Shown in pieces: positions 5,739-30,439 of a stretch of 64,000 nt of DNA. The DNA is from Sneathiella sp. GTDB taxonomy: Bacteria; Pseudomonadota; Alphaproteobacteria; Sneathiellales; Sneathiellaceae. The notes under the pieces are model-generated. The model was not told the origin of the DNA, made no database searches, and saw nothing but the letters and a program-made list of their open reading frames with translations. Within the stretch, counting starts at the first letter, position 1, and each line of letters opens with the position of its first letter. The stretch spans positions 905 through 64,904 of the forward strand of contig JAEPMY010000002.1 of assembly GCA_017643685.1 (NCBI GenBank), written 5' to 3'. Position numbers and translations under genes: made by a program.

Positions 5739-5744
5739 TCAACA

Positions 5745-6724: not shown

Positions 6725-7132
6725 CTAACCGGGCATCCCGTCAAACTTTGGGGCGTCCGGCATCTTTTCTTCCCAGTTCGCCGCATCGGCCATACATAAA
6801 TGAGCGTTTGGCTTAACGTCAACGGGCGTGTCCAATGACCCTGCAGGCACCATCACCAGTCCCGGCCCCGCCACCGGCACCGGGGAGCCACAGGATTTAC
6901 AGAAACTCCGCACATGGCGGGTCCCCTCAACCGCGTAAGTTGAGATATTATCCGAACCGGAGAGCCAGTTTAACTGCGCCTCGGAACTGAACAGATTGGC
7001 CGCATGCGCCGATCCCGTTCCCTTTTGACAGCGATGACAATGACAGAGGAAAAACTGCTGCAACGGTCCCTCAATCTCATAAGAAACCGCCCCACACAAA
7101 CAAGAACCCGAACACATATCCGCCATCAACAC
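6725..7132 (-). CDS. GFA (glutathione-dependent formaldehyde-activating / CENP-V-like) family protein
   Basis: 135 aa with the Cys-rich zinc motifs CLCGAV, CHCHRCQKGTGSAH and CKSCGSP. It is convergent with the cinA-like gene, with no gap between them. Confidence 0.8.
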   Translation of the reverse strand: MLMADMCSGSCLCGAVSYEIEGPLQQFFLCHCHRCQKGTGSAHAANLFSSEAQLNWLSGSDNISTYAVEGTRHVRSFCKSCGSPVPVAGPGLVMVPAGSLDTPVDVKPNAHLCMADAANWEEKMPDAPKFDGMPG

Positions 7133-7199
7133 CTCCCACTGATTTATATATGCGTTAGTGTAAGAGATAGATTAAATCGAATAACAGTAAAGTAAAGAT

Positions 7200-7658
7200 C
7201 TACTCCCGAACACCCACACCATCCGGGGCGCCATAAAGGTCTTTGGCGCGGGTTTCGAAGGCGGCGATCATGCGGTGGACGGCTTCGTTGAAGAGCATGC
7301 CGATGGTTTTTTGCAGGATCATGGATTTAAATTCGAAATCCACATAGAAATCGATTTCGCAGCCGTCCGGGTGGGGATTGAAAACCCAGTGGTTATTAAG
7401 GTATTTGAACGGTCCGTCTTTATATTCCACATCAATCCGTGGCTGCTCCGGTTTCAGGGCGACGTGGGATGTGAAGCGTTCCCGAAACATCTTAAAACCG
7501 ATCACCAGATCAGCGACCATATGACTTTCAGAGCGTTCGCGAATGCGCGCGCCCACACACCAGGGCAGAAACTCCGGGTATTTATCCACTGCCTCGACCA
7601 GAGCGTATAACTGTTCCGGTGTGTAGGGAAGAACCCGTTTTTCTGCATGTGTGGGCAT
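7200..7658 (-). CDS. SRPBCC-fold RatA / COQ10-like ubiquinone-binding protein
   Basis: 152 aa with polyketide-cyclase/START-like sequence. It sits downstream of lipA, as is commonly seen in alphaproteobacteria. Confidence 0.78.
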   Translation of the reverse strand: MPTHAEKRVLPYTPEQLYALVEAVDKYPEFLPWCVGARIRERSESHMVADLVIGFKMFRERFTSHVALKPEQPRIDVEYKDGPFKYLNNHWVFNPHPDGCEIDFYVDFEFKSMILQKTIGMLFNEAVHRMIAAFETRAKDLYGAPDGVGVRE

Positions 7659-7694
7659 GGCTACTCTTGTACGCGATTAGTCTTGTTATTTAGT

Positions 7695-8651
7695 TCAGGC
7701 CTGCTTGGCGTTCAGCTTTTCCCGGGCCGCTTTCAACTTGGCGAAATCTTCGCCAGCGTGGTGACTGGAACGGGTCAGCGGCGAGGACGATACCATCAAG
7801 AAGCCTTTGTTATAAGCCTGTTTTTCATAGGCGTTAAATTCATCTGGCGTCACGAAACGGTCAATGCCGTGGTGCTTGATGGTTGGCTGTAGATATTGCC
7901 CGATGGTCAGAAAATCGATATCCGCAACGCGCATATCATCCATAACCTGCGCCACTTCGTCTTTGTTTTCGCCAAGGCCGACCATAATGCCGGATTTGGT
8001 AAAGATAGTGGGATCCAGCTCCTTCACCCGCTGCAGTAGCCGGAGGGAATGGAAGTAACGGGCGCCCGGGCGAACCGTTGTGTAAAGTTTCGGGACTGTT
8101 TCCAGGTTGTGGTTAAACACGTCTGGTTTCGCCGCAACAACAACCTCTAGCGCGCCGTCTTTTTTCAGGAAATCCGGTGTCAGAATTTCGATTGTTGTCT
8201 CTGGGGAGGCTTCGCGGATGGCCTGAATGACCTCTGCGAAATGCTGGGCACCACCGTCGGCCAGATCATCCCGGTCGACGGAGGTAATCACAACATGGTT
8301 GAGCCCCATCGTAGAGACAGCCTTCGCCACGTTAAACGGCTCAAACGGATCAAGCGCATTTGGCTTACCCGTTGAGACATTACAAAACGCGCAGGCACGG
8401 GTACAAATCTCCCCCATGATCATCATGGTCGCATGCTTCTTGGACCAGCATTCGCCAATATTCGGGCAGGATGCTTCCTCGCACACGGTGGTGAGGTTGA
8501 GCCCGCGCATCAATTCGCGCGTTTCGTTATACTGCTTGGAGACAGGCGCCTTTACGCGGATCCAGCTTGGTTTGCGCTGGATCGGGTTGTCTGGCTTGTG
8601 CGCCTTTTCTGGGTGGCGAACACGTTTTGTCTCACTGGCAACATCTGTCAT
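7695..8651 (-). CDS. lipA: Lipoyl synthase
   Basis: 318 aa with the radical-SAM motif [10 protein letters not shown] and the auxiliary cluster motif [12 protein letters not shown]. Confidence 0.95.
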
Positions 8652-8695
8652 GGCGTATCCAATTTCTGGAACTGAAACTACAAAAAAACTTAAAC

Positions 8696-10096
8696 CTACA
8701 TATGGATGACCTTGCCATACGCATCAAGGACGGATTCATGCATCATTTCCGACAATGTCGGATGCGGGAATACCGTATGCATCAGCTCCAGCTCCGTTGT
8801 TTCAAGGGTTTTAGCAATGCCGTAGCCTTGAATCAACTCTGTAACTTCTGCGCCGATCATGTGGGCACCCAAAAGCTCGCCGGTTTTCTCATCAAAGATC
8901 GTTTTGATAAGCCCTTCCGGCTCGCCAAGAGCAATGGCTTTCCCGTTTCCGATAAATGGAAAACGGCCCACTTTCAGCTTATAGCCTTTTTCCTTGGCCG
9001 CTGCCTCGGTCAGGCCAACACTGGCGACCTGCGGGTGGCAGTAAGTACAGCCCGGAATGTTCTGAACCTCTAGCGGATGCACATCTTTAACGCCGGCAAG
9101 TTTCTCAACGCAGATCACCGCTTCATGAGAGGCTTTATGGGCGAGCCAAGGCGGACCTGTCAGGTCACCAATGGCATAAACGCCCTCTTCCCCGGTACGG
9201 GAAAACTCATCAACCTCAATATGGGTGCGATCAACTTTGATTTTCGTGCCTTCAAGCCCGATATTTTCCACATTACCCACAATCCCAACGGCCATGATCA
9301 CACGGTCATAATCACCGGTGCTGGTTTTGCCTTTGGCATCTTTGAACGTGGCGGTCACATGGTTCGCAGACCTCTTAAGTCCCTCAACCGTTGTGCCTTT
9401 TTTGATGGTCATCCCCTGCTTCTTGAAAGATTTCTCCGCAAAATCAGAGATATCTTTATCTTCAACCGGCAGAACCCTATCCATCACCTCAACAACGGTA
9501 ACATCACTGCCGAGGGCATTAAAGAAGCTCGCAAACTCAATACCGATGGCGCCAGAGCCCACAACCAGCAACCGTTTTGGGGTTGTGTCGGGAACCAAAG
9601 CTTCTTTGTAGGACCAGATGAATTTCCCATCTGGCTCCATCCCCGGCAATGTCCGCGCACGCGCGCCCGTTGCCAGAATGATATGTTTAGCGGAAATCGT
9701 TGTGTTTTTCCCGTCTTTCTCGACAGCAACTTTGCCTTTACCGGCAAGTTTGCCATGCCCTTCCAACACGGTGACTTTGTTCTTTTTCAAAAGACCAGAA
9801 ACACCGCCAGAGAGCTGCGCCGCTACCTGACGAGAGCGTTTTACCGTCGCCTCAAGATCAACAGATGCACCGTCTACCTTAATGCCGTAGCCGGCAGCAT
9901 GTTGGATATTCCGGTAAATATCCGCAGTCCGAAGCAAGGCTTTCGTTGGGATACAGCCCCAATTCAGGCAAATACCGCCCAGATGTTCCCGCTCGATGAC
10001 TGCGGACTTCAGGCCCAATTGCGCCGCGCGAATAGCCGCGACATACCCGCCGGGGCCGGATCCGATAACCACTAGGTCAAAATTCTGATCGCTCAT
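8696..10096 (-). CDS. lpdA: Dihydrolipoyl dehydrogenase (E3)
   Basis: 466 aa with the FAD fold GSGPGGY, the redox disulfide [13 protein letters not shown] and a C-terminal HPTLSE interface motif. Confidence 0.95.
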
Positions 10097-10106
10097 GTCG
10101 GCCCCC

Positions 10107-11411
10107 TTACAGCATCATTGTCAAAGGCTCTTCGATATAGCCTTTGAAGTATTTAAGAAGTTCCGCACCAAGCGCGCCGTCAATCACCCGGTGATCACAG
10201 GACAATGTCACGCTCATCATTGTGGCAACGGTCAATTCACCGTCTTTTACAATTGGACGTTGCTCCCCTGCCCCAACGGCGAGGATCGCAGACTGCGGCG
10301 GGTTAATCACAGCAGAGAATTCTTTAATGCCGAACATGCCAAGGTTCGAGATCGAGAAACATCCACCCTGATATTCTTCCGGCATCAATTTACCGTCCCG
10401 CGCTTTACCGGCGAGGGTTTTCATATCCTCGGAAATATCGGCAAGGCCGCGCTTATCCGCGTTTTTCACAACGGGTGTGATCAGACCACCATCAATAGCC
10501 ACCGCGACGGAGATGTCGATATCTTTATATTGGAGTATCTTATCACCGCCCCAGATCGCATTTGCCGCGGGCAGTTTTTTCAGCGCCAACGCACTTGCCC
10601 GAATGATGAAATCATTGACGGAGATTTTATAATCATCAGAGCGAGAATTAAGCTCTTTTCGCATCGCCAGCAAATTATCCAGCTCACATTCAATGGTGAG
10701 ATAGAAATGCGGGATGGTCTGCTTGGCTTCGGTCAAGCGCTTAGCAATGGTTTTCCGCATGCCGGTAAGCGGAATTTCCTCACGCTCCCCTTCATGCGGC
10801 GGTGTTGTGCCAACGGGCGCCGCAGCGGCGGCAGGCGCAGATGCGGCACTTGCCGCTTTCGGTGCCTCGCTTGGTGCTGCGGATTTCCCGCCGCCTGCGA
10901 TAAAGGCATCCACATCAGCGCGGATCACCCGGCCATGCGGCCCGGTTCCCATAATATCACCAATGCTGACGCCCGCATCAGCCGCAATTCGGCGGGCCAG
11001 TGGGCTTGAGAAAATACGTCCCCCATCACCGGATTTTGGCGCGGCAGGCGCTGGCGTATTTGACGCCGCCGGTGCTGATGCTTCAACCTCAGCTTTTGCT
11101 TCTGCTGCGGTCTCTGGCTTACTTGCGGCAGGTGCAGCGCTCATATTCTCAAGCGCGCTTTCATCCTCTCCCTCTTCCAGAAGATAAGCGATGGGGTCAT
11201 TGACCTGCACATTATCGGTTCCGGCCTCAATCAGGATTTTTCCAACCGTACCTTCGTCAACGGCTTCCACTTCCATGGTCGCCTTATCGGTTTCAATCTC
11301 TGCAAGCACGTCACCTGAGGAGACAGTATCTCCTTCTTTGACATGCCATATCGCCAGTTTCCCCTCAGTCATTGTGGGGGACAGGGCGGGCATTGTAATG
11401 GTAATTGGCAT
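10107..11411 (-). CDS. pdhC: Pyruvate dehydrogenase E2, dihydrolipoamide acetyltransferase
   Basis: 434 aa. It has a lipoyl domain ([13 protein letters not shown]), an Ala/Pro linker, an E3-binding domain (SPLARRIA) and the catalytic motif DHRVIDGA. Confidence 0.93.
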
Positions 11412-11422
11412 CCTGTTTCCCC

Positions 11423-12835
11423 TTATTTCCGATAGGTGACAAGTTTGGACGCTTCAACCACTTCCTGAACACTTGGAAGGGCCAGTTTTTCAAGATTTGC
11501 CGCATATGGCATCGGCACATCTTTACCTGCCACACGGATCACAGGCGCATCCAGATAATCAAATGCTTTTTCCATGATTTGCGCGGAAAGTTCGGCCCCA
11601 ACGCCATGCTGCGGCCAGCCTTCTTCCACTGTGACGCAGCGGTTTGTTTTCCGAACAGAAGCCAGAACCGTATCCATATCAAGCGGGCGAATGGTCCGAA
11701 GGTCGATCACCTCGGCGGAGATCCCGTCTTCTGCCAGTTTCTCAGCCGCGCCAAGCGCATAAGTCATCCCCATCCCAAAGGAAACAATGGTCACATCGTC
11801 ACCAGAGCGGGCGACCTTCGCCTTACCCAGCGGGATCGTGAAATCATCCATAACAGGCACATCAAAGCTGTGACCATAAAGGATCTCATTCTCAAGGAAG
11901 ATAACCGGATTATCGTCACGGATAGCCGATTTTAGAAGTCCTTTCGCGTCTGCTGCGGTATGCGGCGCAACAACGATCAGGCCGGGCACATGGCCGTACC
12001 AAGCAGCAAAACATTGCGAATGCTGCGCACCCACACGAGATGCCGCGCCGTTTGGACCCCGGAACACCATCGGGCTGGCCATTTGCCCACCGGACATATA
12101 ACGGGTCTTGGCGGCAGAGTTTACAATCTGGTCAATCGCCTGCATGGCAAAGTTAAACGTCATAAACTCAACGATTGGACGCAGACCGTGGAATGCAGCC
12201 CCAACACCGACACCGGCAAACCCATGCTCGGTAATCGGGGTGTCAATCACACGGCGCGGACCAAATTCATCCAGCAGACCTTGGGTAACTTTATATGCCC
12301 CCTGATATTCAGCGACCTCTTCCCCCATGATAAAGACACGCTCATCACCGCGCATTTCCTCCGCCATGGCATCCCGAAGGGCTTCGCGGACGCTGGTGCT
12401 TTTCATTTCTGTGCCCGCCGGAATTTCCTGCGATGCGTCATAACCCTTAGCATTAGCTGCAACTGGCATCACGGCATTTGATCCACCGCTCGCAGGGCTT
12501 TCCTCAGCCTCAGCCTCAGCCTCAGCCTCGGCCTCCGCCGCAGGGGCTGCGGCTTCCCCTCCGCTATAATTATCGACAGCACTTGCATCCTCGCCCTCTT
12601 CCAAAAGCAGGGCAATCGGTGTGTTGACGGCCACGTTATCTGTATCCCCATCGATGAGGATTTTACCGATAACACCTTCGTCAACGGCTTCCACTTCCAT
12701 GGTCGCTTTATCTGTTTCAATTTCGGCGAGAACGTCACCAGAGGCGACTTCATCCCCTTCTTTTACCAGCCAGCGGGCTAACTTACCTTCGGTCATGGTC
12801 GGCGACAGAGCCGGCATGAGAATTTCTGTAGGCAT
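11423..12835 (-). CDS. pdhB: Pyruvate dehydrogenase E1 beta subunit with N-terminal lipoyl domain
   Basis: 470 aa. An N-terminal lipoyl domain ([17 protein letters not shown]) and an (AE)n linker are followed by a transketolase-like pyrimidine-binding domain and C-terminal domain. Confidence 0.93.
12502..12535. repeat. Tandem hexanucleotide repeat (CCTCAG x4, then CCTCGG CCTC) encoding the (AE)6 linker of PdhB
   Basis: Read directly: cctcagcctcagcctcagcctcagcctcggcctc. It translates on the minus strand to [12 protein letters not shown]. Confidence 0.9.
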
Positions 12836-12869
12836 TTGATTTCCTCTATGTCTTATCTGCTCTGTAGGT

Positions 12870-13868
12870 TTAAGCCGTGATATCCGTCATCAGCTCATCT
12901 GGATGTGGCTCTGGGCTCTCTTGTGCAAACTCAACGGCTTCTGCAACGATGCTCTTCACTTCGCGGTCGATCTCTTTCAGCTCTTCCTCGGTGTAGATTT
13001 TCTCATTGAGAAGTTTTTCGCGAACCCGTTCGATCGGATCGCTTTCCGCCCGCTTCTTATTCACTTCTTCCTTGGAGCGATATTTCGCCGGATCAGACAT
13101 AGAGTGACCCCGGTAGCGATATGTTTTCATCTCAAGGATATATGGACCTTTACCGCTTCTCGCCCATTCAACAGCTTTACGCCCCGCTTCGGCAACAGCG
13201 AAGACATCCATCCCATCAACCTGTTCACCCGGTACGTTAAAGCTCTCGCCCCGACGATACAGTTCTGGCTGAGACGATGCCCGCTTGACGGATGTGCCCA
13301 TGGCATATTCGTTATTTTCAATCACATAGACAACTGGCAGATCCCAAAGCTCTGCCATGTTGAAGCTTTCATAGACCTGGCCTTGGTTCACTGTGCCGTC
13401 CCCCATATAACAAAGGGTGACCTGACCATTATCCTGATATTTCTGGCTAAAAGCGAGACCCGTTCCAAGAGGGACACAGGCACCCACGATACCGTGGCCA
13501 CCATAGAAATTCTTCTCTTTGGAGAACATATGCATGGAGCCGCCCTTACCTTTGGAATAGCCGCCTTCACGGCCGGTAAGTTCTGCCATCACACCTTTCG
13601 GATCCATGTCACACGCCAACATATGACCGTGATCCCGATAAGAGGTTATGACCGCATCGTCATCATTGATTGTGGATTGCATGCCCACAACCACCGCTTC
13701 CTGACCGATATACAGGTGACAAAAGCCACCGATCAATCCCATGCCGTAAATCTGACCCGCTTTCTCTTCAAAACGGCGAATTAACAACATATCGCGAAAA
13801 TATTTCTTGGTGAGTTCCGGATCGACCTTCGCTTTTCTGCGCCGGGTCGTTGAAGCCGCTTTAGCCAT
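12870..13868 (-). CDS. pdhA: Pyruvate dehydrogenase E1 alpha subunit
   Basis: 332 aa with the TPP-binding motif [17 protein letters not shown] and [10 protein letters not shown]. Confidence 0.95.
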
Positions 13869-14518: not shown

Positions 14519-16987
14519 TTAACTGGTTCTAGCACCAGTATTTTTTTGTTTTTCTAATTGGAGATACTCATTCAGCACACGAATGCTTTTTGCGAAGGTT
14601 CTCTGCAGATGTTTGATATCCGCGCTGCAATCCTCACCAGAGAGCATTTTCACCTCAATCGTGGAGGCAATATCCGCAACGGAAACCAATCCGGCATTAG
14701 AAGACATCCCTTTGATCTCATGAGCAAACCGGCTGCGTTTCTCGTTAGTCAGTTTCCGGTCCAGCAACTTTGGCACATTATGATTCAATGTCTCCTGCAG
14801 CGATTTGATCAAGATATCCAGCTGAGCCTGCGTCATGAGCTTGGTTATCGGCTCTAGAATATCCTTGTCAATTAACGGGGCATCACTGCTGCCGTCCAGT
14901 TCTTCACCGCCGCCCGCGTTTCGGTTTCTCTCATCCAATATGATGGACGCGATGACATTTCGGACGTCAGCATGAACAATTGGCTTGGTCAAAATCTTCT
15001 GCATACCCGCTTCAAGATACTTATCGACCTGATTTTTCAGGGTATTTGCAGTCATTGCAACAATTGGAAGGTCTTCAACAGTCACGCCGCCCTCCCGAAT
15101 TGCCTGAGTTGCGTCAATGCCGTTCATAACAGGCATCTGGATATCCATAAGGACCAGATCAAACTTTTGCGGATTTTCCCGAATGACAGAGACAGCCTGC
15201 GCCCCGTTATCGCATATGGATACCTGATGCCCATCTTTCACCAGCATCTCTCTCACGATCATTTGGTTGATGTCGCTATCTTCCACCAGCAGGATGTTCA
15301 AATTCGGAATTTCAACATCCTGACCAAGAAGTGTGACTTTGGGAAGCTTCCGAACAGAACTTAACAGCGGGATTTTAAAGTTAAGCGTTAGATTTGCCGG
15401 ATGGGTTTGAAATTCGGTCACTTCCGCATCCAGAATAACCAGCAAAGTCTCGTTCAGTTTTAGCTCACTGTCAGCTCTGTTCGTCTGGATAAACTGATCA
15501 TCCTGTTGATATGTGATCTCAACATCCAGAAGATACCCCTCCTCTTGCGGATTGACACTCACCAACGCCCCAAGAGAGCCCTGCTCCCTTTTACTCAGCA
15601 TCTCACGGAACAATTCGAACAGAAATTGGCGAAGCACAGGCGCGTATCCCCGATAAACCTGCTCGCTATCGCCGACAATATTATAATGAATATTGATATT
15701 CCGGCGCTCGGACAAAGGACGGAACAGTGTGACAAGGCCAGAGATCAACTGCTCCAGATCAAAATCAACCTCATCCCCTGCATGAATTTTATCATCACGC
15801 AGGCCAAGCTCGATAATACGCCCAATTAGGGACAACATATAAAACGTAGAGTTTTTCGCAGAACGCACATGATCCCGAACATTTTGGGGGAACTGGTCCT
15901 TATCCAGATGCGGTACAATCTGCATCAAATTGTCCAGCGACATGCGCGTATCCGCCAACAGATGATCCAAAAGCCACTTGCGGCTCTTTTCTTCCGACTG
16001 CTTGATTTCAAGCTCTTTCTTGAACTCCGCCTGCCGCTGCACCAGTAGATCAATGCTATTTTGCTTGGCACTGATTTTGCGATCCGCGCCCCCAAGGAGC
16101 CAAAGTGTTACCGAAGTAACAACACACAGCAGGAACAGAAGGAAGGCCGCCAAATCTTCCGGTAAGGTTTCGAACTTATCGACCAGAACATCGGTCGGCC
16201 GGACCGATAGCGCGAAATCGAAGTTATTATTGACGATATTAAACTCCCTGATCCATTCGCGGTTGTTTGGGGTTGAATATCGAGGGCTTTCAAAAAGGGT
16301 GGTTTCATCAATTGAAAGGGCCAATTCAAACATCGGATCTTCAAACGCGTTTGTTCTGGCCCTTAACACATCGCGAACCCAGGGCGCCGGACGCAGCACG
16401 ATCATCAGCCTGCGGATTTGCTGTGACTCCCCATAAATCGGAATCCACAGCACCAAAAAATTATGGCCGCCGTTTAGATTTCCATCACCGGGAAGCGACA
16501 CAAACTGTCCCCTCTCCTTGCTAATGATGCTGCTGTCGATCCGCTGAATAATATCACGGAGCACAACCCCCGTTGATTTATGAAAATTCCACAGCAGACT
16601 TCCGTCATGTTCGGTAATTGCAACGGTTAAAACACCGGGCCCGGTTGTTAAAAACTCGGACCAGTCATCGATATTGCCAAGCAACGCCTCACGGGGGCTC
16701 GTATGATATCTCTCGGATAAGAATTCCAGTGCATTGAATTTTGCGGTTAAGTCAGAATTGATCGCATCTGCAATCAGGTCACCTTCAACGGAGATCACTT
16801 TTTCTAAGTACGACGCGTGATTTTCCTGGACTGCCTGCCAAGCAAACCAAGACCCTAAAACGCCCCCAATCAGGATCAAAACCGCCAATGACCGAAGTAT
16901 CAGACTTTTATCAAGCCGAAGAACCATACTGACTTCCATAACAAGAGGCGCTACCGGCACCCTAAAAATATAGTTGGATGCGGTCAC
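14519..16987 (-). CDS. Membrane sensor protein with a degenerate HK-like core, a receiver domain and a C-terminal Hpt domain
   Basis: 822 aa with two TM segments flanking a periplasmic region of about 230 aa. It has a REC domain (ILLVEDSDINQ...DLVLMDIQMPVMNG...KP) and an Hpt domain (RFAHEIKGMSSNAGL). The region between TM2 and REC resembles DHp/CA but lacks clear H, N, G1 and G2 boxes. The start is GTG at 16987; downstream ATGs are possible. Confidence 0.8.
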   Translation of the reverse strand: MTASNYIFRVPVAPLVMEVSMVLRLDKSLILRSLAVLILIGGVLGSWFAWQAVQENHASYLEKVISVEGDLIADAINSDLTAKFNALEFLSERYHTSPREALLGNIDDWSEFLTTGPGVLTVAITEHDGSLLWNFHKSTGVVLRDIIQRIDSSIISKERGQFVSLPGDGNLNGGHNFLVLWIPIYGESQQIRRLMIVLRPAPWVRDVLRARTNAFEDPMFELALSIDETTLFESPRYSTPNNREWIREFNIVNNNFDFALSVRPTDVLVDKFETLPEDLAAFLLFLLCVVTSVTLWLLGGADRKISAKQNSIDLLVQRQAEFKKELEIKQSEEKSRKWLLDHLLADTRMSLDNLMQIVPHLDKDQFPQNVRDHVRSAKNSTFYMLSLIGRIIELGLRDDKIHAGDEVDFDLEQLISGLVTLFRPLSERRNINIHYNIVGDSEQVYRGYAPVLRQFLFELFREMLSKREQGSLGALVSVNPQEEGYLLDVEITYQQDDQFIQTNRADSELKLNETLLVILDAEVTEFQTHPANLTLNFKIPLLSSVRKLPKVTLLGQDVEIPNLNILLVEDSDINQMIVREMLVKDGHQVSICDNGAQAVSVIRENPQKFDLVLMDIQMPVMNGIDATQAIREGGVTVEDLPIVAMTANTLKNQVDKYLEAGMQKILTKPIVHADVRNVIASIILDERNRNAGGGEELDGSSDAPLIDKDILEPITKLMTQAQLDILIKSLQETLNHNVPKLLDRKLTNEKRSRFAHEIKGMSSNAGLVSVADIASTIEVKMLSGEDCSADIKHLQRTFAKSIRVLNEYLQLEKQKNTGARTS

Positions 16988-20674: not shown

Positions 20675-20683
20675 TCCAAAACG

Positions 20684-20720
20684 AGGAGGTCAGATCAACT
20701 GACCTCCTTTATTTTTTTAA
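20684..20720. terminator. Bidirectional intrinsic terminator between convergent iorB and the LuxQ-like kinase gene
   Basis: The hairpin is AGGAGGTCAG-atcaa-CTGACCTCCT, followed by TTATTTTTTTAA on the plus strand. On the minus strand it is followed by CGTTTTGG. The right arm and T-run also encode the last residues (KKIKEVS) of the minus-strand kinase. Confidence 0.6.
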
Positions 20721-23310
20721 CGGCTATAGCGTTGTAAAGCGCCTCTGAAAGATGCTGTTTTGTGAACGGCTTCATCAGGATTTCACTATTTTCTGTAATC
20801 CCCCGCTTCTGTTTGAGCGGCAGGTTATTGCCCGTAAATCCAGACATCAACACCAAGGGAAGGTCCGGGTGCACATTTTTCACATGCTCCGCAATGTCGA
20901 AACCGTTCATATTCCCCGGCATGATCACATCAACCAATAAAGCATCGGCTTTATCTTCTTCCAATGCCAGGATGCCAGCGGATGAATCCAGATAGACTTC
21001 AGGGGTATACCCGATGGCCTGTAGCTGCCGGGCGATCATCTCGGCAACTTTTGGATCATCCTCGATGACAACAACTGTCTCTCCACCCCCAAATTTAATA
21101 CTCGAATGAACAGGGCTTACCCCCTCTTCTTCATCATCACTAAGGGCCCGCGGCAGGTAAAGCTTAATGCTCGTCCCCACACCTTCTTCACTATAGATAC
21201 CAACACTGCCACCTGACTGCTTGGCAAAGCCGAAAACCATGCTCAGCCCAAGACCGCTCCCTTTACCGACTTCCTTAGTGGTGAAGAAAGGCTCAAAAAT
21301 ACGTGATTGCGTTTCCTTGTTCATTCCCGAACCGGTGTCGGTGACGCAAATACAGACATACTCCCCTGTCTCAAGCTCGTGCTCACTTTCCACGCCATCA
21401 TTTTCAACAACCATATTAAAGCTCTCAATAGAGATTTCACCGCCAAGCGGCATCGCATCTCGAGAGTTGATCAACAGGTTCATCAACGCATTTTCAAGCT
21501 CATTAGGATCAACCGTAATGCTCCAATTACTCTCCAAATAGGTTTTCAGAGAAACGCTCTCACCAACCGCTCGCTTAAAAAGGCTGAACATCTCAGTCAC
21601 AATTTTTTGCGGTTGGATGACGGACGGCTGCAATGTCTGTTGACGGGAATAGGCCAGTAACTGATGGGTTAAAGAGGCGCCGCGCTCTGCCCCGCGCACA
21701 GCATCACCTAACATTTTCCGAGTCGTAGGATCGAGCTTTTCATCTTCCAACGCCAGCTCCAGGTTCCCCAAAACGACCGCAAGCAAGTTATTGAAATCAT
21801 GAGCAATTCCGCCTGTTAATTGACCAACAACTTCAAGCTTCTGAGACTGTCTTAGCTGCTCTTGAACTTTCTCCGCTTCTTGCTGGGCCAATTGCTCCGC
21901 AGTGATATTACTGGAAGTACCGCGATACCCTAAATATTTACCGTTTTGATCAAAACGAGGACGCCCGCTGGCAGACCAGTACTCCACATTTCCAAGCGGG
22001 TTTACGCGCCGAAAAATAAAACCACGGAAAGGCTCATGCTTAGCCAAGAGGGCTTTATGGCCTTCCCAGTCTCCGTAATTCTCGTCTATCCCTTCCACTT
22101 CCCAACGGCGCTTTCCAATAAGGCCACCATAACGAAGTGGATTTGGAGTAGATTTGTCACGGGACACAAACGTATAGCGGTGCTCAGGATCAGTTTCCCA
22201 AACGGAATCTGATGTCACATTTGCAAAATCCTGAAAGCGCTGTTCACTTTCTATAAAGTTGGTAAACACGCTTTTCAGTGTCCGTGCCAACTCGTTGAAT
22301 TCACGTGCCGAAAACTCTGGCACGACTATGTTCTTATCGCGCTTATCAAGTCTTTTCGCGTAAGAGATCAACCGGGTCAGCGGTGTTACAAATAACGAAT
22401 TTCCAAGGGAATAAGAAAACAGCGAGAGGATCAGAATGATACCGAACCCAAGCGTTCCGGAGACAACGTACAATTCCCGAAGCGAGCGGTAATTTTCATC
22501 GCGATAATGAACGGTTGCGGTCAAATTCGAATTTGGGAAGGCTGCCTGCTGAATTTTCGGCATAAATACCAGTTCATCAGGGTACAGGGTTTCCAATTCT
22601 TTAGCGGAGAGTGTGTAATCAATCAGTTCATTCGCCTCCCCAATTTGGCCAATGATCTCCCCATCCCAACGAAGTGCAACATATTCCGCTTCTGTCCGGG
22701 TTGAAATCTCTTCCAGCAACGAAATATTCTCATTCACAAATAGGCCAGAGACAATAAATCCATCTACCTTGCCAGTAAAACGGTTCAGAATTTCTGTTCG
22801 GTAATACAGGATCACTTGCGGATCGCCGCCGTCATGGCCCGGCTCAACCGCCCAATACCAGTCTTTTGGTTGGGCGAGTTGCTGTGTAATCTGTTTGCGG
22901 ATGGCCGGAAATTGATACAGCTGGATGTGAATTTCTTCGACGATATCACCTTGCTCTGTCAGCAGGGCAATATAATCTACATTCCCTTCTTTCTGGGTAT
23001 AGAAAGCAGTTTCGATAAAACTATAGATATCCTCTAATTGTCCGGCGTCTTTTCCCGCGATTTCCTCGGATATCAGGTCGGCGAACTGCTTCGCCGCATC
23101 AAGGCGTTTTTCCAACACCAGATCAACAATTGTTCCGGTTTTGCCAGAAATTTGTTCCCGCTCGTTTTCGACCACAAGACTAGAGCTGAAGAAGGTTACC
23201 ACCAAAATGGCGAGGACAAGCAGAGACAGGACCCCAAACAGGCCACCTGCCAGCAATACCGGAAGCTTATATCCGGTGCCCTTCTTAGTTTTCGGAGTAT
23301 CTAAATGCAC
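20695..23310 (-). CDS. Hybrid sensor histidine kinase/response regulator, LuxQ-like periplasmic sensor architecture
   Basis: 871 aa. TM1 is at about aa 15-41, followed by a periplasmic region of about 240 aa and TM2 at about aa 281-307. Then come PAS, the H box GGIAHDFNNLLAV, the N box LMNLLINSRDAM, G1 DTGSGM, G2 GSGLGLS and a C-terminal REC domain (VVVIEDD...LLVDVIMPGNMNG). The GTG start overlaps the luxP 3' end by 26 nt. Confidence 0.85.
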   Translation of the reverse strand: MHLDTPKTKKGTGYKLPVLLAGGLFGVLSLLVLAILVVTFFSSSLVVENEREQISGKTGTIVDLVLEKRLDAAKQFADLISEEIAGKDAGQLEDIYSFIETAFYTQKEGNVDYIALLTEQGDIVEEIHIQLYQFPAIRKQITQQLAQPKDWYWAVEPGHDGGDPQVILYYRTEILNRFTGKVDGFIVSGLFVNENISLLEEISTRTEAEYVALRWDGEIIGQIGEANELIDYTLSAKELETLYPDELVFMPKIQQAAFPNSNLTATVHYRDENYRSLRELYVVSGTLGFGIILILSLFSYSLGNSLFVTPLTRLISYAKRLDKRDKNIVVPEFSAREFNELARTLKSVFTNFIESEQRFQDFANVTSDSVWETDPEHRYTFVSRDKSTPNPLRYGGLIGKRRWEVEGIDENYGDWEGHKALLAKHEPFRGFIFRRVNPLGNVEYWSASGRPRFDQNGKYLGYRGTSSNITAEQLAQQEAEKVQEQLRQSQKLEVVGQLTGGIAHDFNNLLAVVLGNLELALEDEKLDPTTRKMLGDAVRGAERGASLTHQLLAYSRQQTLQPSVIQPQKIVTEMFSLFKRAVGESVSLKTYLESNWSITVDPNELENALMNLLINSRDAMPLGGEISIESFNMVVENDGVESEHELETGEYVCICVTDTGSGMNKETQSRIFEPFFTTKEVGKGSGLGLSMVFGFAKQSGGSVGIYSEEGVGTSIKLYLPRALSDDEEEGVSPVHSSIKFGGGETVVVIEDDPKVAEMIARQLQAIGYTPEVYLDSSAGILALEEDKADALLVDVIMPGNMNGFDIAEHVKNVHPDLPLVLMSGFTGNNLPLKQKRGITENSEILMKPFTKQHLSEALYNAIAVKKIKEVS

Positions 23311-24406
23311 GCTGTCTTAATTCCGAAATTTGACGTTGAGTAGTCGTTTGATCCACGATGATCATGGAACCGGAATAAACCGTCGGCAATTCAGCACCTT
23401 TTCCGATGCTATCCAAAATAATTGCTTCGGCCATTGCAACGCCATTGTCATCATTCATACGCATGACTGTGAATTCCAATTCGCCTTTTTCAATGGCAAG
23501 CAATTCACTATCTCCCCCGCCCCAGCCATTGGTAATTACCTGGCCGAGTCTTCCCGTCTCTTTAAGTGCATCCACAACCCCAAGCGCAATATCTGTGGAG
23601 CAGCTAAAGATAAAATCTAATTTTCCGCTGGTTTTTAAAACGTCTTTTGTCGCCAAATAGGCTTTTTCGCGATTAAATCCAACATGGTAGCTTGAAACAA
23701 GCTCCATATTCTCATGCTCGGCCATAATCTCCTGAAAACGGCCGCAACGCATATCACTCACATAACCTTTTTCGCCAAACATGATGGCAAAGGTGGCTCC
23801 GTCCTTAAATTTCTTCAGATACTGTTCTGCCAGATATTCAGTTCCCGTCACATGATCAAAACCGACGTAAAGAAAAGGCTGCTGCAGCCGGAAAACTTTT
23901 AGCGGTGTCGTAATATTCTGCAGGATCACCTTTGATGATTTATGTTTAATCAGTTGCTTGATCAAAACACGATGCTGATCCGCATTGAGCGTAAACACAA
24001 CATAATCAGGTTTCTCTGACAAAAACTCAGTCAGCTTTTTGCTTTGTTCCCGAAAAACCTCGCCGGGCCGGGTGAAATGGGTCTGCAATTCATACACGGC
24101 CCCATATTCAGCCAGACGCCGCTCCATTGAAACAATGCTCCGCCGCCAATAATCAGACACCTGAAATCCTGGCAGCACCATCACAATTTTAATAACTTTT
24201 CCAACATCTATTTCAGATATAGGGGGGGTTTGGACCCGATTACCGAACTCTTCGGATTTGGAAATCTGATCTTGGTTTAAGGCCAAATATTCCTCAACGG
24301 TCCAATAGCTCTGGAACCGGCTGTCGGCGGCCGCGCCGTGAATATTGGCCATAGAGAAGCTCAAAAAGAGTGCTGAAAGAAGCAATCCTCTTGCTGTTAG
24401 TCCCAT
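23285..24406 (-). CDS. luxP: Periplasmic autoinducer-2 binding protein LuxP
   Basis: 373 aa with a signal peptide. It shows end-to-end block similarity to Vibrio harveyi LuxP as I recall that sequence: QVSDYW, ILQNITTP, QPFLYVGFDH, GYVSDMR, CSTDIALG, NGWGGG, TVMRMNDDNGVAMAEAI, PTVYSG and RAFRYSEN. It is followed by an overlapping hybrid kinase, as in luxPQ. Confidence 0.85.
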   Translation of the reverse strand: MGLTARGLLLSALFLSFSMANIHGAAADSRFQSYWTVEEYLALNQDQISKSEEFGNRVQTPPISEIDVGKVIKIVMVLPGFQVSDYWRRSIVSMERRLAEYGAVYELQTHFTRPGEVFREQSKKLTEFLSEKPDYVVFTLNADQHRVLIKQLIKHKSSKVILQNITTPLKVFRLQQPFLYVGFDHVTGTEYLAEQYLKKFKDGATFAIMFGEKGYVSDMRCGRFQEIMAEHENMELVSSYHVGFNREKAYLATKDVLKTSGKLDFIFSCSTDIALGVVDALKETGRLGQVITNGWGGGDSELLAIEKGELEFTVMRMNDDNGVAMAEAIILDSIGKGAELPTVYSGSMIIVDQTTTQRQISELRQRAFRYSEN

Positions 24407-24612
24407 ACAACTTCTCCACTTAAACTAAACTCTGAATTAGTTTAGGTCCAAATACCTAAATAATATCTTAAAGATTTATCTAAAATGACGCTAAAAATGG
24501 CATAGTTCATTGATATTAATCATTTTTGGCTGGTTTTGATGGAGGTGCTATTTGCAAATCATTCTCGAAGGTTTATGATGGAAAAACCGACCATAAAAAA
24601 TAAGAAAAATCC

Positions 24613-27280: not shown

Positions 27281-29365
27281 TTAAAGGTCTTTAAAACCTT
27301 TACCTTCTTTCGCCAGCTTCTCTAACAGAGCTGCAGGCTTGAAGAAGTCGCCGTGTTTTTCCTGATATTCGCAAAGCTTCTTGTAAACTTTGTCGAGACC
27401 AACCGCATCACCGTAGCGCATTGGGCCACCGCGATAGACAGGCCAACCATAACCATAGACCCAGGTAACGTCGATATCACTGGCGCGAGAGGCGATGCCC
27501 TCTTCCAGGATTTTCGCCCCTTCATTAATCATTGGGTAGATACACCGCTCCAGAATTTCCTCATCGGAAATATTCCGGCGCTCAATGCCCGCTTCTTTAG
27601 ACGCGTTGACAATGATTTCTTCAACAACCGGATCTGGTTTCGGTGTCCGGCTACCATCTTCATAGAGGTAATAACCGGCGCCTGTTTTCTGACCAAAACG
27701 GCCCATTTCACAGATCGTGTCAGCAACGGCGCTTTTCACACCTTTACCCTGACGGATACGCCATCCAACATCGTTACCGGCAAGATCAGCCATCGCAAAT
27801 GGACCCATTGGCAAACCGAAGTCATACAAAACGCGGTCCACATCCTGTGGCAGTGCCCCTTCCATAATCAGAGCAGTTGCCTGCTCTGTCCGGCGGTGCA
27901 GGATACGGTTACCCACAAAACCTTCACAAACGCCGACCATAACAGGTATTTTGCCGATCCGTTTTGCCAGGTTCATACAAGTTGCCATAACCTCTTTACT
28001 GGTTTTCTTGGTACGCACTTCTTCCAGCAACTTCATGACATTTGCCGGGCTGAAGAAATGCAGACCGATGACAGATTCAGGGCGTTTTGTGACGCTACCG
28101 ATTTCATCTATATCCAGTGTGGAGGTGTTTGTTGCCAGAATGGCGTCTTCTTTACAGATCGCATCCAGTTTCTGGAACAGCTCTTTTTTCACTTCCATAT
28201 TCTCGAAAATGGCTTCGATGACGATATCCGCATCTTTTACATCTTCAAGATTGGTTGTGCCGGTCAGCAGGCTCATGCATTTATCCATCGCTTCCTGCTT
28301 CATCCGTCCCTTGGAAACGGTTGCCGCATAGTTCTTACGGATAATTTCAAGACCATTGTCCAGACCTTCCTGAGAAGTCTCAACAATCGTAACCGGAATA
28401 CCAGCCTGCAGGAAGTTCATGGCGATACCGCCGCCCATAGTGCCTGCCCCAATGATACCGCAAGTATTGATATCAAAAGTTTTTGTCTCCCGCGGGACAT
28501 CAGGAATTTTCATAGCCTGACGCTCTGCGAAGAACATGTAGCGCTGGCTGATAGACTGCTCACCTGTCATCAATTCCATAAACAGTTCACGCTCGCGCTT
28601 CAACCCATCAGGGAATGGCAGATTAACGGCACCTTCAATGGCTTTGATGCAGTTTTCTGGCGCCAGGAAACCACGTGTTTTACGGGCGATGGATTTGCGG
28701 AAATCATCAAAAATCGCAGGATTGTCTTTCGCTTCCTGCAACTTATCGTCCTGATCAGAGATTTTGACCAGCGGACGGCCTTCATCGGCAACTTTCTGTG
28801 CAAAAGCTTTCGCGCCTTCTTTCAGATCGCCGTCAACAATTTCGCTGACCAAGCCTACTTCCAATGCTTTGGCCGCTTTGATCGGATTACCGCTTGTAAT
28901 CATCTGAAGTGCCATTGGCACCCCAACAACACGCGGCAGACGCTGCGTTCCGCCAGCACCTGGAAGGATACCCAGTTTCACTTCTGGCAGACCAACCTGC
29001 GCAGTTGGGCTACACACCCGGTAATGACACCCAAGAGCTGTCTCAAGACCACCGCCGAGCGCTGTACCGTGAACGGCCGCAACAACTGGCTTTTTGGAGT
29101 TCTCGATCGCCTCAATTACAGCATTCAGGCTCGGCTCTTGTGGTGGTTTACCAAATTCGGTGATATCCGCACCTGCGATAAATGTCCGTCCCGCGCAGTG
29201 AAGAACGATGGATGTCACACTGTCATCCGCATTCGCCGCTTCGATACCACCTTTGATACCGGCACGAACCGCGGCGGCCAGTGCGTTCACTGGTGGATTG
29301 TCCACCGTGATAACCCCAACATTACCCTCTGCTTCGTAACTTACTTTATCCGTAATGGCAGTCAT
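27281..29365 (-). CDS. Multifunctional enoyl-CoA hydratase / 3-hydroxyacyl-CoA dehydrogenase (FadB/FadJ-like)
   Basis: The N-terminal crotonase fold ([23 protein letters not shown]) is followed by a 3-HCDH Rossmann fold ([12 protein letters not shown]) and C-terminal domains. The ORF opens with TTG at 29380. The ATG at 29365 is preceded by GGAAGGAA. Confidence 0.9.
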
Positions 29366-29404
29366 ATGTATTCCTTCCAAGGTTTTGACTGTTCTTATTC
29401 AGGA

Positions 29405-30439
29405 TTAATCCCGTGTTGGATCCTCGGAAACCTGTACCAACAGCTTTCCGAAATTTTTGCCTTTCAGCAGACCAAGAAACGCCTCTGGGGCGTTTTCAAT
29501 ACCCTGTACAATATCTTCTTTATACTTAACTTCGCCGGTGCGGATCCAGTTTCCAAGGTCCCGCACAACGTCCGGGAAGCGATCATAATGATCAAAACTT
29601 ATAAAACCTCTTAACATAATACGTTTTACCAGCATGGTTCCCATAAAGGCCGGTAATTTGTTCGGACCATCTGGATCGCCCGTCATGTTATAGTTGGCAA
29701 TCCGACCACAAAGCGGGATCCGCGCGAAGTCATTCATCAATGGGAATACCGCATCAAAGACGCGACCACCCACATTTTCAAAATAAACATCAACGCCATT
29801 TGGGCAGGCTTTTTCAAGCTGAGCCTCAAAGTCATCATCTTTATAGTTGAGGCACTCATCCATGCCCAGCTCATCAACAACATAACGGCATTTATCTTCG
29901 GAACCGGCAACACCGATCACGCGGCAGCCTTTGATTTTGGCGATCTGCCCAACGATAGAGCCCACAGCACCGGATGCCGCAGAGACCACAACCGTCTCAC
30001 CCTCTTTTGGCTGACCAATATCCAGCAGACCCACATAAGCCGTCAGGCCAGGCATACCCAAAATACCAACACCTGTTGAAATTGGGGCGTTGGATGGGTC
30101 AACTTTCATCACGCCTTGGCCGTTGGATACGGAATGTGACTGCCACAGGGTATGGCTAACCACATAATCGCCTTCTTTGAATTTTGGATTGTTGCTGCTC
30201 ACCACAACAGAAACGCCAGTACCACTCATTGGCTGGCCGATTTCAGCACTTGCCGCGTAGCTTTTAGACTCGTTCATCCGACCACGCATATACGGGTCCA
30301 GTGACATGTAAATGGTTTTCAGCAGCATTTCACCTTCGCCCGGTGTTGGCACAGGTGTTTCAACATATTCCCAGTTATCAAGCGTTGGTTCTCCCACAGG
30401 GCGGGATTTCAGAAGCCATTGTTTGTTCATTTCAGTCAT
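29405..30439 (-). CDS. NADP-dependent alkenal/enone oxidoreductase (MDR superfamily, YncB/CurA/PTGR1-like)
   Basis: 344 aa with the zinc-free MDR nucleotide motif VVSAASGAVGSIVGQIAKIKGCRVIGVAGS and a typical C-terminus GKNFGKLLVQV. Confidence 0.87.
   Translation of the reverse strand: MTEMNKQWLLKSRPVGEPTLDNWEYVETPVPTPGEGEMLLKTIYMSLDPYMRGRMNESKSYAASAEIGQPMSGTGVSVVVSSNNPKFKEGDYVVSHTLWQSHSVSNGQGVMKVDPSNAPISTGVGILGMPGLTAYVGLLDIGQPKEGETVVVSAASGAVGSIVGQIAKIKGCRVIGVAGSEDKCRYVVDELGMDECLNYKDDDFEAQLEKACPNGVDVYFENVGGRVFDAVFPLMNDFARIPLCGRIANYNMTGDPDGPNKLPAFMGTMLVKRIMLRGFISFDHYDRFPDVVRDLGNWIRTGEVKYKEDIVQGIENAPEAFLGLLKGKNFGKLLVQVSEDPTRD

Follow-up and report, generated by a model that had tools for sequence, protein, structure and literature searches.

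A probable chromosomal luxPQ-type AI-2-sensing operon of an uncultured marine alphaproteobacterium of Sneathiellales type

A two-gene luxPQ-type locus was found on the minus strand of a 64-kb stretch of Sneathiella sp. DNA (hereafter the window), and it is probably a chromosomal AI-2-sensing operon of an uncultured marine alphaproteobacterium of Sneathiellales type, working by the mechanism proposed below. The luxP-type gene (23285..24406) encodes a 373-aa periplasmic binding protein and the luxQ-like gene (20695..23310) an 871-aa membrane hybrid histidine kinase. The evidence comprises homology, predicted fold, conservation of the ligand pocket, operon structure, intact catalytic motifs and a Sneathiellales gene order. 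Sequence and predicted fold assign the 373-aa protein to the LuxP type, as do its pocket residues and its operon partner.

An earlier note on this DNA had read the 373-aa ORF and quoted its N-terminus together with blocks matching Vibrio harveyi LuxP. The ORF and its N-terminus were confirmed, and all of the quoted blocks recurred in the HMMER alignment, in which the V. harveyi LuxP PDB chains 4yp9, 1zhh, 1jx6 and 2hj9 aligned to residues 32–373 of the query (E ~3e-84, 286 bits). The two proteins showed 43% identity (147/339) over the full length, a resemblance that at the sequence level is far beyond chance. In the PDB sequence search, ribose/allose-type binding proteins ranked second (51 bits, E 1e-12) and LsrB and TorT structures gave no match at E<=1e-3; compared with the LsrB, RbsB, AlsB and TorT families, LuxP was clearly the nearest, with 286 bits against 51 or fewer for any other solved binding protein. 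Pfam detected only PF13407 (Peripla_BP_4), and NCBIfam gave weak AlsB/RbsB matches far under their cutoffs (42 vs 335). A Sec signal peptide (MGLTARGLLLSALFLSFSMANIHGAAA; 24326..24406, minus strand, luxP codons 1–27) was predicted from the sequence; inspection and hydropathy showed an n/h/c-region layout with a basic n-region, a hydrophobic core (KD peak of 2.2 at residues 7–17) and small residues before the mature part, and homology to mature LuxP starts at residue 32. The AlphaFold model of the protein (pLDDT 91.9, pTM 0.87) had LuxP chains as all of its best eight Foldseek matches (TM 0.89–0.93, rmsd 2.1–2.7 A, E 5e-39 to 5e-36), some 20 orders of magnitude ahead of the family that followed at 1e-18. 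The structure closest to the predicted model was AI-2-bound 1jx6 (TM 0.93, rmsd 2.1 A).

All eight AI-2-contact residues that had been claimed as conserved were found aligned and identical to those of V. harveyi LuxP. With the V. harveyi numbering anchored on N26, positions 77, 79, 82, 159, 215, 266, 289 and 310 are Q, S, W, N, R, T, W and R, and they correspond in the alignment to Q82, S84, W87, N164, R220, T271, W295 and R316 of the query. AI-2 is hydrogen-bonded by N159, R215 and R310 of LuxP (PMC6452917), borate is bound by R215 and R310 (PMC3794749), and the remaining LuxP contact residues line the pocket (PMC9920117). The eight residues were invariant in 120/120 database homologues, and the eight-residue signature was intact in 78/82 sequences spanning all clades. 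Among the published pocket-lining positions, 20/24 were the same as in V. harveyi LuxP; the changes (F206 to G211, A239 to F244, D136 to N141 and I211 to V216, V. harveyi to query) are second-shell and, judged from sequence, could shift specificity relative to V. harveyi LuxP.

It is possible, though unlikely, that the architecture is of LuxPQ type and the ligand is another borate ester (furanosyl or polyol) or a mimic of AI-2 made by algae, yeasts or an animal host; because the ligand would then not be bacterial AI-2, the system would report a chemical habitat cue and not bacterial density. LuxP crystals do hold borated sugars other than AI-2, namely a formose-derived analogue in 4yp9 and 1-deoxy-L-xylulofuranose-1,2-borate in 4yr7, both among the best structural matches, and yeast and human AI-2 mimics sensed by LuxP are the subject of two papers (PMC8092285; bioRxiv 10.64898/2026.01.16.699917). 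The hydrophobic pocket wall (G211/F244/N141) unlike that of V. harveyi points the same way, as does a host lineage expected to be without luxS (PMC3386761). However, the polar and charged contacts are all invariant, both borate-binding arginines included, and the G/F state at G211/F244 is that of the family majority (119/122 and 113/122), V. harveyi being the exception. Besides, AI-2 binding was reported for three LuxP-type proteins drawn from Proteobacteria and Deferribacterota, non-Vibrio proteins included (PMC12268683).

The kinase was predicted to have the order TM, LuxQ-type periplasmic domain, TM, linker/PAS, HisKA, HATPase_c and REC, with two hydrophobic segments at aa 14–50 and 277–309. 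For its periplasmic sensor domain (about aa 48–280; 22471..23169, minus strand) a LuxQ periplasmic (tandem PAS/dCache-like) fold is predicted: Pfam detected PF09308 (34.8 bits vs a cutoff of 25.7) in addition to HisKA, HATPase_c and Response_reg, V. cholerae LuxQ 3c30 matched the domain in the PDB sequence search (E 2e-5), and its predicted model (pLDDT 84.5) had LuxQ periplasmic domains as its best six Foldseek matches (E 4e-11 to 2e-9, TM 0.67–0.78). The identity to Vibrio LuxQ was 13–18% in the fold alignment, a divergence so great that conservation of the LuxP-LuxQ interface is not to be assumed. The DHp/CA kinase core (aa 496–721; 21148..21825, minus strand) is of CckA/NodV type and not of Vibrio LuxQ type; its top PDB match was CckA 5idj (E 9e-41), and PRK13557 and CckA were the best NCBIfam models. 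The LuxQ equivalog NF041947 (LuxQ_Vibrio) scored 127 bits vs a cutoff of 1200 and aligned only with the N-terminal part, at aa 15–367, so that by the NCBIfam definition the kinase does not count as a LuxQ orthologue. Database matches outside Sneathiellales were alphaproteobacterial PAS hybrid kinases, covering only the C-terminal 45–60%. The C-terminal receiver domain (aa 746–858; 20737..21075, minus strand; Pfam Response_reg E 5e-13) contains a DVIMPG motif, and the catalytic motifs of the kinase are intact (H-box H504, N-box, G-box and the receiver phospho-acceptor D794). From sequence and predicted model, the sensor half is that of LuxPQ and the transmitter half alphaproteobacterial, of CckA/NodV type.

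luxP and the kinase gene form a two-gene operon, in which the luxP end and the kinase GTG start overlap by 26 nt (23285..23310, minus strand); the overlap was independently called on other assemblies, and translational coupling appears likely from the sequence. The luxP ATG is preceded, at a distance of 7 nt, by a GGAG ribosome-binding site (24414..24417, minus strand). The gap between luxP and its partner was at most 30 nt, or the genes overlapped, in 56/69 related loci, and a partner with a LuxQ periplasmic domain was directly downstream of luxP in 73/77 assessable loci of other species. Upstream, luxP and a CoA-transferase gene are separated by a divergent intergenic region (24407..24612), in which a luxPQ promoter is presumed to lie; a consensus scan of this region gave sigma-70-like hexamers on the plus strand only (24551–24579) and none on the minus strand. 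At the other end, where the luxQ-like gene converges with a molybdenum-hydroxylase gene, a GC-rich hairpin flanked by T-runs on either strand (20683..20709) is by pattern match a candidate bidirectional terminator, although terminator-like sites were no more numerous in this region than expected from shuffled sequence. The neighbours of luxP are kinase, CoA-transferase and MFS transporter genes, unrelated to ligand transport, and no ABC-transporter genes (permease, ATPase) were found among the neighbouring genes scanned.

In the mechanism proposed, the secreted LuxP-type protein would bind S-THMF-borate (borated AI-2) in the periplasm, in the same pocket as V. harveyi LuxP, and would dock on the LuxQ-type domain that the membrane hybrid kinase, translated together with it, exposes to the periplasm. 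Once ligand is bound, the kinase/phosphatase balance would change in this kinase (H504 to D794), which would feed an Hpt protein and a response regulator encoded elsewhere. The identity of the ligand as AI-2, contact between LuxP and LuxQ, the way in which the switch works, the partners further downstream and the sensing of AI-2 from other species are inferred parts of this mechanism. The transmitter is of alphaproteobacterial CckA/NodV type, and a Vibrio LuxU-LuxO-Qrr output is therefore not expected. No LuxU (Hpt), LuxO (sigma-54 response regulator) or luxS was found among the ORFs scanned in the 64-kb window, the sole sigma-54 regulator being a canonical NtrC in a dus-ntrB-ntrC cluster, and the conserved luxPQ neighbourhood held no Hpt or response-regulator partner. 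With a hand-entered LuxS sequence as probe, neither the window nor the DNA up to 10 kb from luxP in 80 loci showed a LuxS-like sequence. Alphaproteobacteria usually lack luxS; the host lineage is expected to be without it, and Sneathiellales probably lack it.

The gene order flanking luxPQ was shown to be common, on both sides, to nine Sneathiella/Sneathiellales-type loci, and the flanking genes were 60–83% identical to their Sneathiella/Sneathiellales counterparts. The chromosome is of alphaproteobacterial type, as had been noted earlier; the accompanying suggestion of a possible horizontal acquisition found no support for a recent event, given this gene order, the identity of the flanks and the tree position of the protein, which fell inside the Sneathiellales clade of the LuxP tree with V. 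harveyi LuxP as a distant branch. A recent horizontal transfer of the luxPQ pair from a Vibrio-like donor is very improbable: luxP has a GC of 0.448 and a GC3 of 0.46, somewhat under the window mean of 0.501, and some LuxP clades depart from taxonomy (Litoribrevibacter and Litoribacillus, both Gammaproteobacteria, nest among alphaproteobacterial sequences), but the GC3 is inside the range of the neighbouring genes and the kinase transmitter is alphaproteobacterial, in addition to the matching flanks and the tree position. The luxPQ genes here look inherited and not recently transferred, and alphaproteobacterial copies are to be seen as resident genes and not as recent imports. An ancient transfer of luxPQ into the ancestor of the order may have occurred.

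The effectively refuted reading of the 373-aa protein as an ordinary ribose/allose-type ABC-transporter or TorT-type binding protein merely resembling LuxP could draw on PF13407, which is common to it and RbsB/AlsB/LsrB, on the weak NCBIfam matches and on the NCBI name of its homologues ('substrate-binding domain-containing protein'), but the bit scores, the unmatched TorT and LsrB, the Foldseek gap, the NCBIfam cutoffs and the neighbouring genes given above all speak against it.

The LuxP-type protein was also compared with known systems. Like V. harveyi/campbellii LuxP (1JX6, 1ZHH, 2HJ9, 4YP9, 4YR7), it has an N-terminal helical extension before the binding-protein core, a signal peptide (predicted here) and a gene directly upstream of a LuxQ-type sensor, besides the identity, the TM scores of the predicted model and the eight AI-2/borate contacts already given; unlike it, the protein has G211/F244 and N141 for F206/A239 and D136, belongs to an alphaproteobacterial host and is known here from sequence and model. 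Vibrio LuxQ (NF041947; 2HJE, 3C30), the best fold match for the predicted periplasmic domain, has the same domain order as the 871-aa kinase (TM, tandem-PAS periplasmic, TM, PAS, HisKA, HATPase_c, REC), whereas the kinase core and receiver here are nearest to CckA/PRK13557/NodV-type alphaproteobacterial hybrid kinases and luxU/luxO are not nearby. V. harveyi LuxQ, with about 859 aa, is of similar size. Among bacteria without luxS, LuxP homologues are on record for Neptuniibacter (MED92_04774), Marinomonas (MED121_11334) and Desulfuromonas (Dace_1280) (Rezzonico and Duffy, 2008; PMC2561040), and eavesdropping was proposed for these Oceanospirillales and Deltaproteobacteria; they are likewise marine, and their LuxP-like protein shares an operon with a PAS-containing sensor unlike Vibrio LuxQ, but here the class is Alphaproteobacteria (Sneathiellales) and the partner keeps a recognisable LuxQ periplasmic domain and the full hybrid-kinase layout. 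The LsrB receptors of luxS-negative Alphaproteobacteria (Sinorhizobium meliloti, Rhodobacter; PMC3386761) are also AI-2-binding periplasmic proteins with PF13407; LsrB takes R-THMF without borate and delivers it to an ABC importer (lsrACD, lsrK, lsrR), whereas kinase signalling without uptake is proposed here. An Lsr transporter system was rejected, as the search at E<=1e-3 brought up no LsrB structure and no lsrACD-, lsrK- or lsrR-type genes (ABC transporter, kinase/repressor) were found in the luxP neighbourhood. TorT/TorS, XylFII/LytS and HptA/HptS (reviewed in PMC8050422) follow the same logic, a non-transport binding protein docking on a sensor kinase encoded next to it, but use other binding-protein families or sensor-domain folds. 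XylFII was a distant Foldseek match to the predicted LuxP-type model (E ~1e-15). TorT/TorS, with a Peripla_BP_1-type TorT, was rejected, as Pfam gave PF13407 only and no TorT structure matched; the NCBIfam TorS model reached 73 bits vs a cutoff of 676 on the kinase, in the kinase core only.

The earlier view that LuxP is essentially restricted to Vibrionales is outdated, as 1347 LuxP homologues were found in the database at E<=1e-20 and luxP was carried by at least 163 species-representative genomes of several phyla; the textbook confinement of LuxPQ to Vibrio is no longer valid. Hosts include Alphaproteobacteria, Oceanospirillales, Campylobacterota, Desulfobacterota and others, and all host taxa found were marine. 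Borate is abundant in marine settings. LuxPQ-type pairs are common in marine non-Vibrio bacteria and are already present in databases and papers: both non-Vibrio homologues from bacteria lacking luxS and the notion of eavesdropping were in print by 2008 (PMC2561040), alphaproteobacterial LuxP was used or listed in 2024–25 (PMC11069264, PMC12268683) and LuxP abundance was highest in ocean habitats (PMC12268683). By itself, the window adds one uncultured marine alphaproteobacterium to the LuxP carriers already recorded and matters little alone. Depending on lineage, the LuxQ-type sensor domain with LuxP was joined to different outputs: kinase, hybrid kinase, PAS-GGDEF-EAL, chemoreceptor or PP2C phosphatase. 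The chances seem about even that LuxP and the LuxQ-type periplasmic domain together are an old, portable borate/AI-2 sensing module of marine bacteria of several phyla, joined through recombination to five or more kinds of output. In Sneathiellales this module would have been vertically inherited and fused to a CckA/NodV-type transmitter, so that an alphaproteobacterial phosphorelay, and not LuxU-LuxO, would receive the input from foreign AI-2 or from a borated mimic. Vibrio quorum sensing would then be a special case within a much wider sensing system. Such a pattern would extend marine AI-2/borate sensing well past Vibrio; in lineages without AI-2 production of their own, this sensing would directly govern the turnover of c-di-GMP (Roseibium, Stappia, Labrenzia) as well as chemotaxis and partner-switching phosphatases. 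Proteins of this kind are already named LuxP/LuxQ in JGI and UniRef.

The luxP-type gene was found on the minus strand at 23285..24406, exactly where the earlier note had placed it, as an ORF of 373 aa with the N-terminus MGLTARGLLLSALFLSFSMANIHGAAA, an ATG at 24406 and a GGAG 7 nt upstream. Comparison with all PDB sequences (phmmer) showed V. harveyi LuxP (4yp9, 1zhh, 1jx6, and 2hj9) to be the best match, with E about 3e-84 and 286 bits over query residues 32-373 and essentially the whole mature LuxP. The two proteins showed 43% identity (147/339), and all LuxP blocks quoted in the earlier note were legible in the alignment. The next family, ribose/allose-type binding proteins, reached 51 bits (E 1e-12), and LsrB and TorT structures gave no match at E<=1e-3 in the same search, which places the protein closest to LuxP and not to TorT, LsrB or ribose-binding proteins. 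NCBIfam gave sub-threshold AlsB/RbsB matches only; it contains no model recognising LuxP and was therefore unusable for LuxP membership. With 58 homologues as input, AlphaFold2 gave a model (mean pLDDT 91.9, pTM 0.87) for which the top Foldseek matches in PDB were eight LuxP chains (E 5e-39 to 5e-36, TM 0.89-0.93, rmsd 2.1-2.7 A), the closest being AI-2-bound 1jx6, followed by designed allose binders and ribose-binding proteins with E about 1e-18.

The numbering of mature V. harveyi LuxP was rebuilt from the phmmer alignment with N26 as anchor, and positions 77, 79, 82, 159, 215, 266, 289, and 310 were shown to be Q, S, W, N, R, T, W, and R. Hydrogen bonds to AI-2 come from N159, R215, and R310 (PMC6452917), the borate is held by R215 together with R310 (PMC3794749), and Q77, S79, W82, T266, and W289 line the pocket (PMC9920117); a list of pocket residues was not found in PMC2561040. 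The conservation of these eight ligand residues, claimed in the earlier note, was borne out: a MAFFT alignment matched them to query Q82, S84, W87, N164, R220, T271, W295, and R316, and they were invariant in 120/120 retrieved database homologues. Among the published pocket-lining positions, 20/24 were identical between the window LuxP and that of V. harveyi, the others being F206, A239, D136, and I211 in V. harveyi and G211, F244, N141, and V216 in the window. Most family members share G211 and F244 (119/122 and 113/122, respectively), V. harveyi being the exception, and relative to F206/A239 the bulky hydrophobic side chain of the pocket wall seems to have swapped places between the two positions. 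The D136 to N141 change was specific to the Sneathiellales clade and may, together with this swap, affect the fine-specificity for the ligand.

The next gene on the same strand, luxQ-like (20695..23310), encodes a hybrid histidine kinase of 871 aa and starts with a GTG within the final luxP codons, giving an overlap of 26 nt that was found identically in independent gene calls from other assemblies. The kinase contains the Pfam domains LuxQ-periplasm (PF09308; 34.8 bits compared to a gathering score of 25.7), HisKA, HATPase_c, and Response_reg, and its H-box (AH504DFNNLL), N-box, G-box, and receiver D794 are all intact. Hydrophobic segments at aa 14-50 and 277-309 flank a periplasmic loop of about 233 residues, and both Pfam and structure matches assign a LuxQ-type periplasmic domain to 22471-23169 (minus strand). 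When the periplasmic part was modeled (pLDDT 84.5), the six best PDB matches were LuxQ periplasmic domains from V. cholerae and V. harveyi (Foldseek; E 4e-11 to 2e-9, TM 0.67-0.78), ahead of KinD and dCache chemoreceptors. There is good support for assigning the two proteins as a predicted LuxP-type receptor and its LuxQ-type partner.

The cytoplasmic half of the kinase, on the other hand, differs from that of Vibrio LuxQ. Compared to the NCBIfam LuxQ_Vibrio equivalog the protein scored 127 bits against a cutoff of 1200, with only aa 15-367 aligned; the best NCBIfam models were PRK13557 and CckA, and the best solved structure was the CckA kinase core 5idj (E 9e-41). A full-length search of a collection of 5.8 billion proteins detected the whole architecture in about 20 proteins only, all from Sneathiella/Sneathiellales, and the remaining matches covered only the C-terminal 45-60% and were alphaproteobacterial PAS hybrid kinases, some of them named NodV or CckA. 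Thus, a LuxQ-type periplasmic domain combined with a CckA/NodV-like cytoplasmic half makes this protein a LuxQ-type sensor on an alphaproteobacterial transmitter. An exhaustive HMMER search with the periplasmic domain gave 12 cluster representatives only at E<=1e-3 among 1.84 billion, and identity was 24-34% even with the nearest relatives. These few matches point to a fast-evolving sensor domain; LuxP is by contrast conserved, with 43-60% identity across phyla, and the rates at which the two partners evolve are very different.

Downstream, pattern matching alone gave a candidate bidirectional terminator at 20683-20709, an 11-bp GC-rich hairpin with T-runs on each strand that lies right at the junction of the convergent luxQ-like and molybdenum-hydroxylase genes. 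A promoter scan did not reveal a convincing minus-strand promoter upstream of luxP.

The gene pair was compared with 80 luxP-carrying loci from other species, of which 77 could be assessed, the other three ending too soon after luxP. A protein with a LuxQ-type periplasmic domain was encoded directly downstream of luxP in 73/77 loci, with a median gap of -1 nt and a distance of <=30 nt or an overlap in 56/69 measured cases. The output part of this partner was a plain histidine kinase in 35 loci (Kiloniella, Thalassobaculaceae, the Arcobacter group, Magnetococcales, and others), PAS-GGDEF-EAL in 20 loci, all from Roseibium, Labrenzia, and Stappia, and a hybrid kinase in 13 loci (Sneathiellales, Terasakiella, and one Desulfobacteraceae). 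In addition, HAMP-PAS-SpoIIE (PP2C phosphatase) was found in two loci (L054 and L058, Desulfobulbaceae and Desulfococcaceae) and a HAMP-MCP chemoreceptor in one (Ca. Vecturithrix L040); of the other two, L051 had its partner cut by the contig end and L080 had it split into two ORFs. The 4/77 exceptions comprised three orphan luxP genes without an adjacent partner (L048, L071, and L078 from Curvivirga, Terasakiella sp. A23, and a Methylocystaceae MAG), of which L071 and L078 grouped together in the LuxP tree, and Litoribrevibacter L018, where no LuxQ-type sensor is recognisable in the adjacent kinase and the next protein encoded is of the GGDEF-EAL type. The eight-residue pocket signature was intact in 78/82 sequences and in every output class. 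LuxP with a LuxQ-type sensor thereby appears, from sequence comparison, to be a portable module whose output varies by lineage. Such output diversity was not found described in the literature searched, and this modular pattern is of more interest than the single locus in the window.

The earlier note had described LuxP as generally treated as essentially restricted to Vibrionales, a view contradicted both by the searches and by literature since 2008. Relatives at E<=1e-20 amounted to 1347 proteins from several phyla, and at least 163 species-representative genomes were found to encode one. Besides Sneathiella, carriers included Kiloniella, Terasakiella, Roseibium/Labrenzia/Stappia, Thalassobaculaceae, Rhodovibrionaceae, Magnetovibrio, and Magnetococcales, and further Oceanospirillales-type Gammaproteobacteria, Arcobacter/Halarcobacter/Poseidonibacter, several Desulfobacterota, and Ca. 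Vecturithrix. In JGI and UniRef some relatives are named 'autoinducer 2-binding protein LuxP', and the S. chinensis kinase is named 'LuxQ'. A LuxP-type protein here is not unusual in sequence space. Rezzonico and Duffy (2008) concluded that complete LuxPQ circuits are confined to Vibrionales, and reported LuxP homologues in luxS-negative Neptuniibacter, Marinomonas, Desulfuromonas, and Desulfovibrio with PAS-containing operon partners unlike LuxQ, for which eavesdropping was proposed (PMC2561040). Two alphaproteobacterial candidates came out of a 2024 survey that relied on LuxP reference sequences from alpha- and gammaproteobacteria (PMC11069264), and a 2025 survey gives 267 LuxP-type proteins in RefSeq, with AI-2 binding reported for 3/267, from Proteobacteria and Deferribacterota (PMC12268683). 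The Vibrio-only view was repeated in reviews of 2012 (PMC3386761) and 2022 (PMC8895600), and the Vibrionales-only premise is probably traceable to such reviews. The system is of a known and widely distributed kind, and its distinguishing feature is the alphaproteobacterial transmitter.

From 17.1 to 32.3 kb, the gene order of the window matched that of nine loci from Sneathiella glossodoripedis (JCM 23214), S. chinensis (LMG 23452), Sneathiella MAGs, Sneathiellales MAGs, and related Alphaproteobacteria: AMP-binding enzyme, oxidoreductase, FadJ-like enzyme, MFS transporter, CoA-transferase, luxP, luxQ-like, molybdenum hydroxylase, 2Fe-2S subunit, and TetR regulator, with 60-83% identity between flanking proteins. 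The remainder of the window is core alphaproteobacterial housekeeping, including alaS and a block at 927-13868 with ntrC, ntrB, dus (nifR3), fused ispDF, lipA, lpd, pdhC, pdhB with an N-terminal lipoyl domain, and pdhA. The window LuxP fell within the Sneathiellales clade of a neighbour-joining tree and V. harveyi LuxP formed a distant branch beside Motiliproteus; this tree was midpoint-rooted without bootstrap or outgroup and is read for clade membership only. Shared gene order, housekeeping genes, and LuxP tree thus show the alphaproteobacterial context to be right, in agreement with the taxonomy of Sneathiella (Alphaproteobacteria, order Sneathiellales). The suggested horizontal acquisition found no support as a recent event, because of the gene order, the clade placement, and a GC3 like that of the neighbours: the GC content of luxP (0.448; GC3 0.46) is slightly below that of the window (0.501), with a GC3 inside the range of neighbouring genes. 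No LuxP >58% identical to the window copy was detected among species-representative genomes; a near-identical gene is present in the MAGs GCA_041939105.1 and GCA_041937745.1.

In Vibrio, (LuxPQ)2 takes on an asymmetric arrangement in response to AI-2 (review: PMC8050422). By analogy, a best-supported signaling route can be proposed beside the observed LuxP homology, fold, pocket, operon structure, and kinase catalytic motifs. The presumed ligand is AI-2: the secreted LuxP-type protein would bind S-THMF-borate, formed spontaneously from DPD in borate-rich seawater, and would dock through a putative LuxP-LuxQ interface on the periplasmic domain of the co-translated kinase. Ligand binding would then alter the kinase/phosphatase balance, and the phosphoryl group would pass from H504 to D794 and be relayed onward to an Hpt protein and a response regulator, both unlinked, as the putative output. 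The ORFs scanned within the 64-kb window included no luxS, pfs, luxU or luxO, and a six-frame LuxS probe (E. coli sequence) gave no match in the window or within 10 kb of luxP in the 80 loci; Alphaproteobacteria have SAH hydrolase in place of LuxS (PMC3386761). The only sigma-54 regulator encoded in the window is NtrC, which is no candidate for LuxO.

An 822-aa protein is encoded at 14519-16987 (minus strand), in a stretch of lower GC (0.45-0.46) at a distance of 3.7 kb from the luxQ-like gene. A receiver domain is clearly recognisable at aa 565-679, and aa 742-795 match Hpt below threshold (21.4 bits compared to a cutoff of 24.6). Its residues 321-560 showed about 25% identity to a kinase core in L071, and on this basis the protein could be a divergent hybrid kinase of the unorthodox type. 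It was rejected as the missing Hpt partner, being absent from Sneathiella loci with the same gene order, and a link to the LuxQ-like relay is speculation.

A 306-kb contig labelled MAG: Pseudomonas marincola (JBALWO010000001.1; L002) was found to carry a Sneathiellales-type luxPQ locus with the same flanking order and proteins 63-81% identical to those of the window, and the name Pseudomonas probably reflects an error of binning or labelling. In the window, two adjacent overlapping ORFs of 414 and 153 aa (41836-43080 and 43077-43538, both minus strand) beside DUF1853 and TauE-family exporter genes gave no Pfam match at E<=1e-5. An ORF of 753 aa at 27353-29614 (plus strand) is antisense to the well-supported FadJ-like gene at 27281-29380 (minus strand) and in all likelihood represents a shadow ORF rather than a gene.
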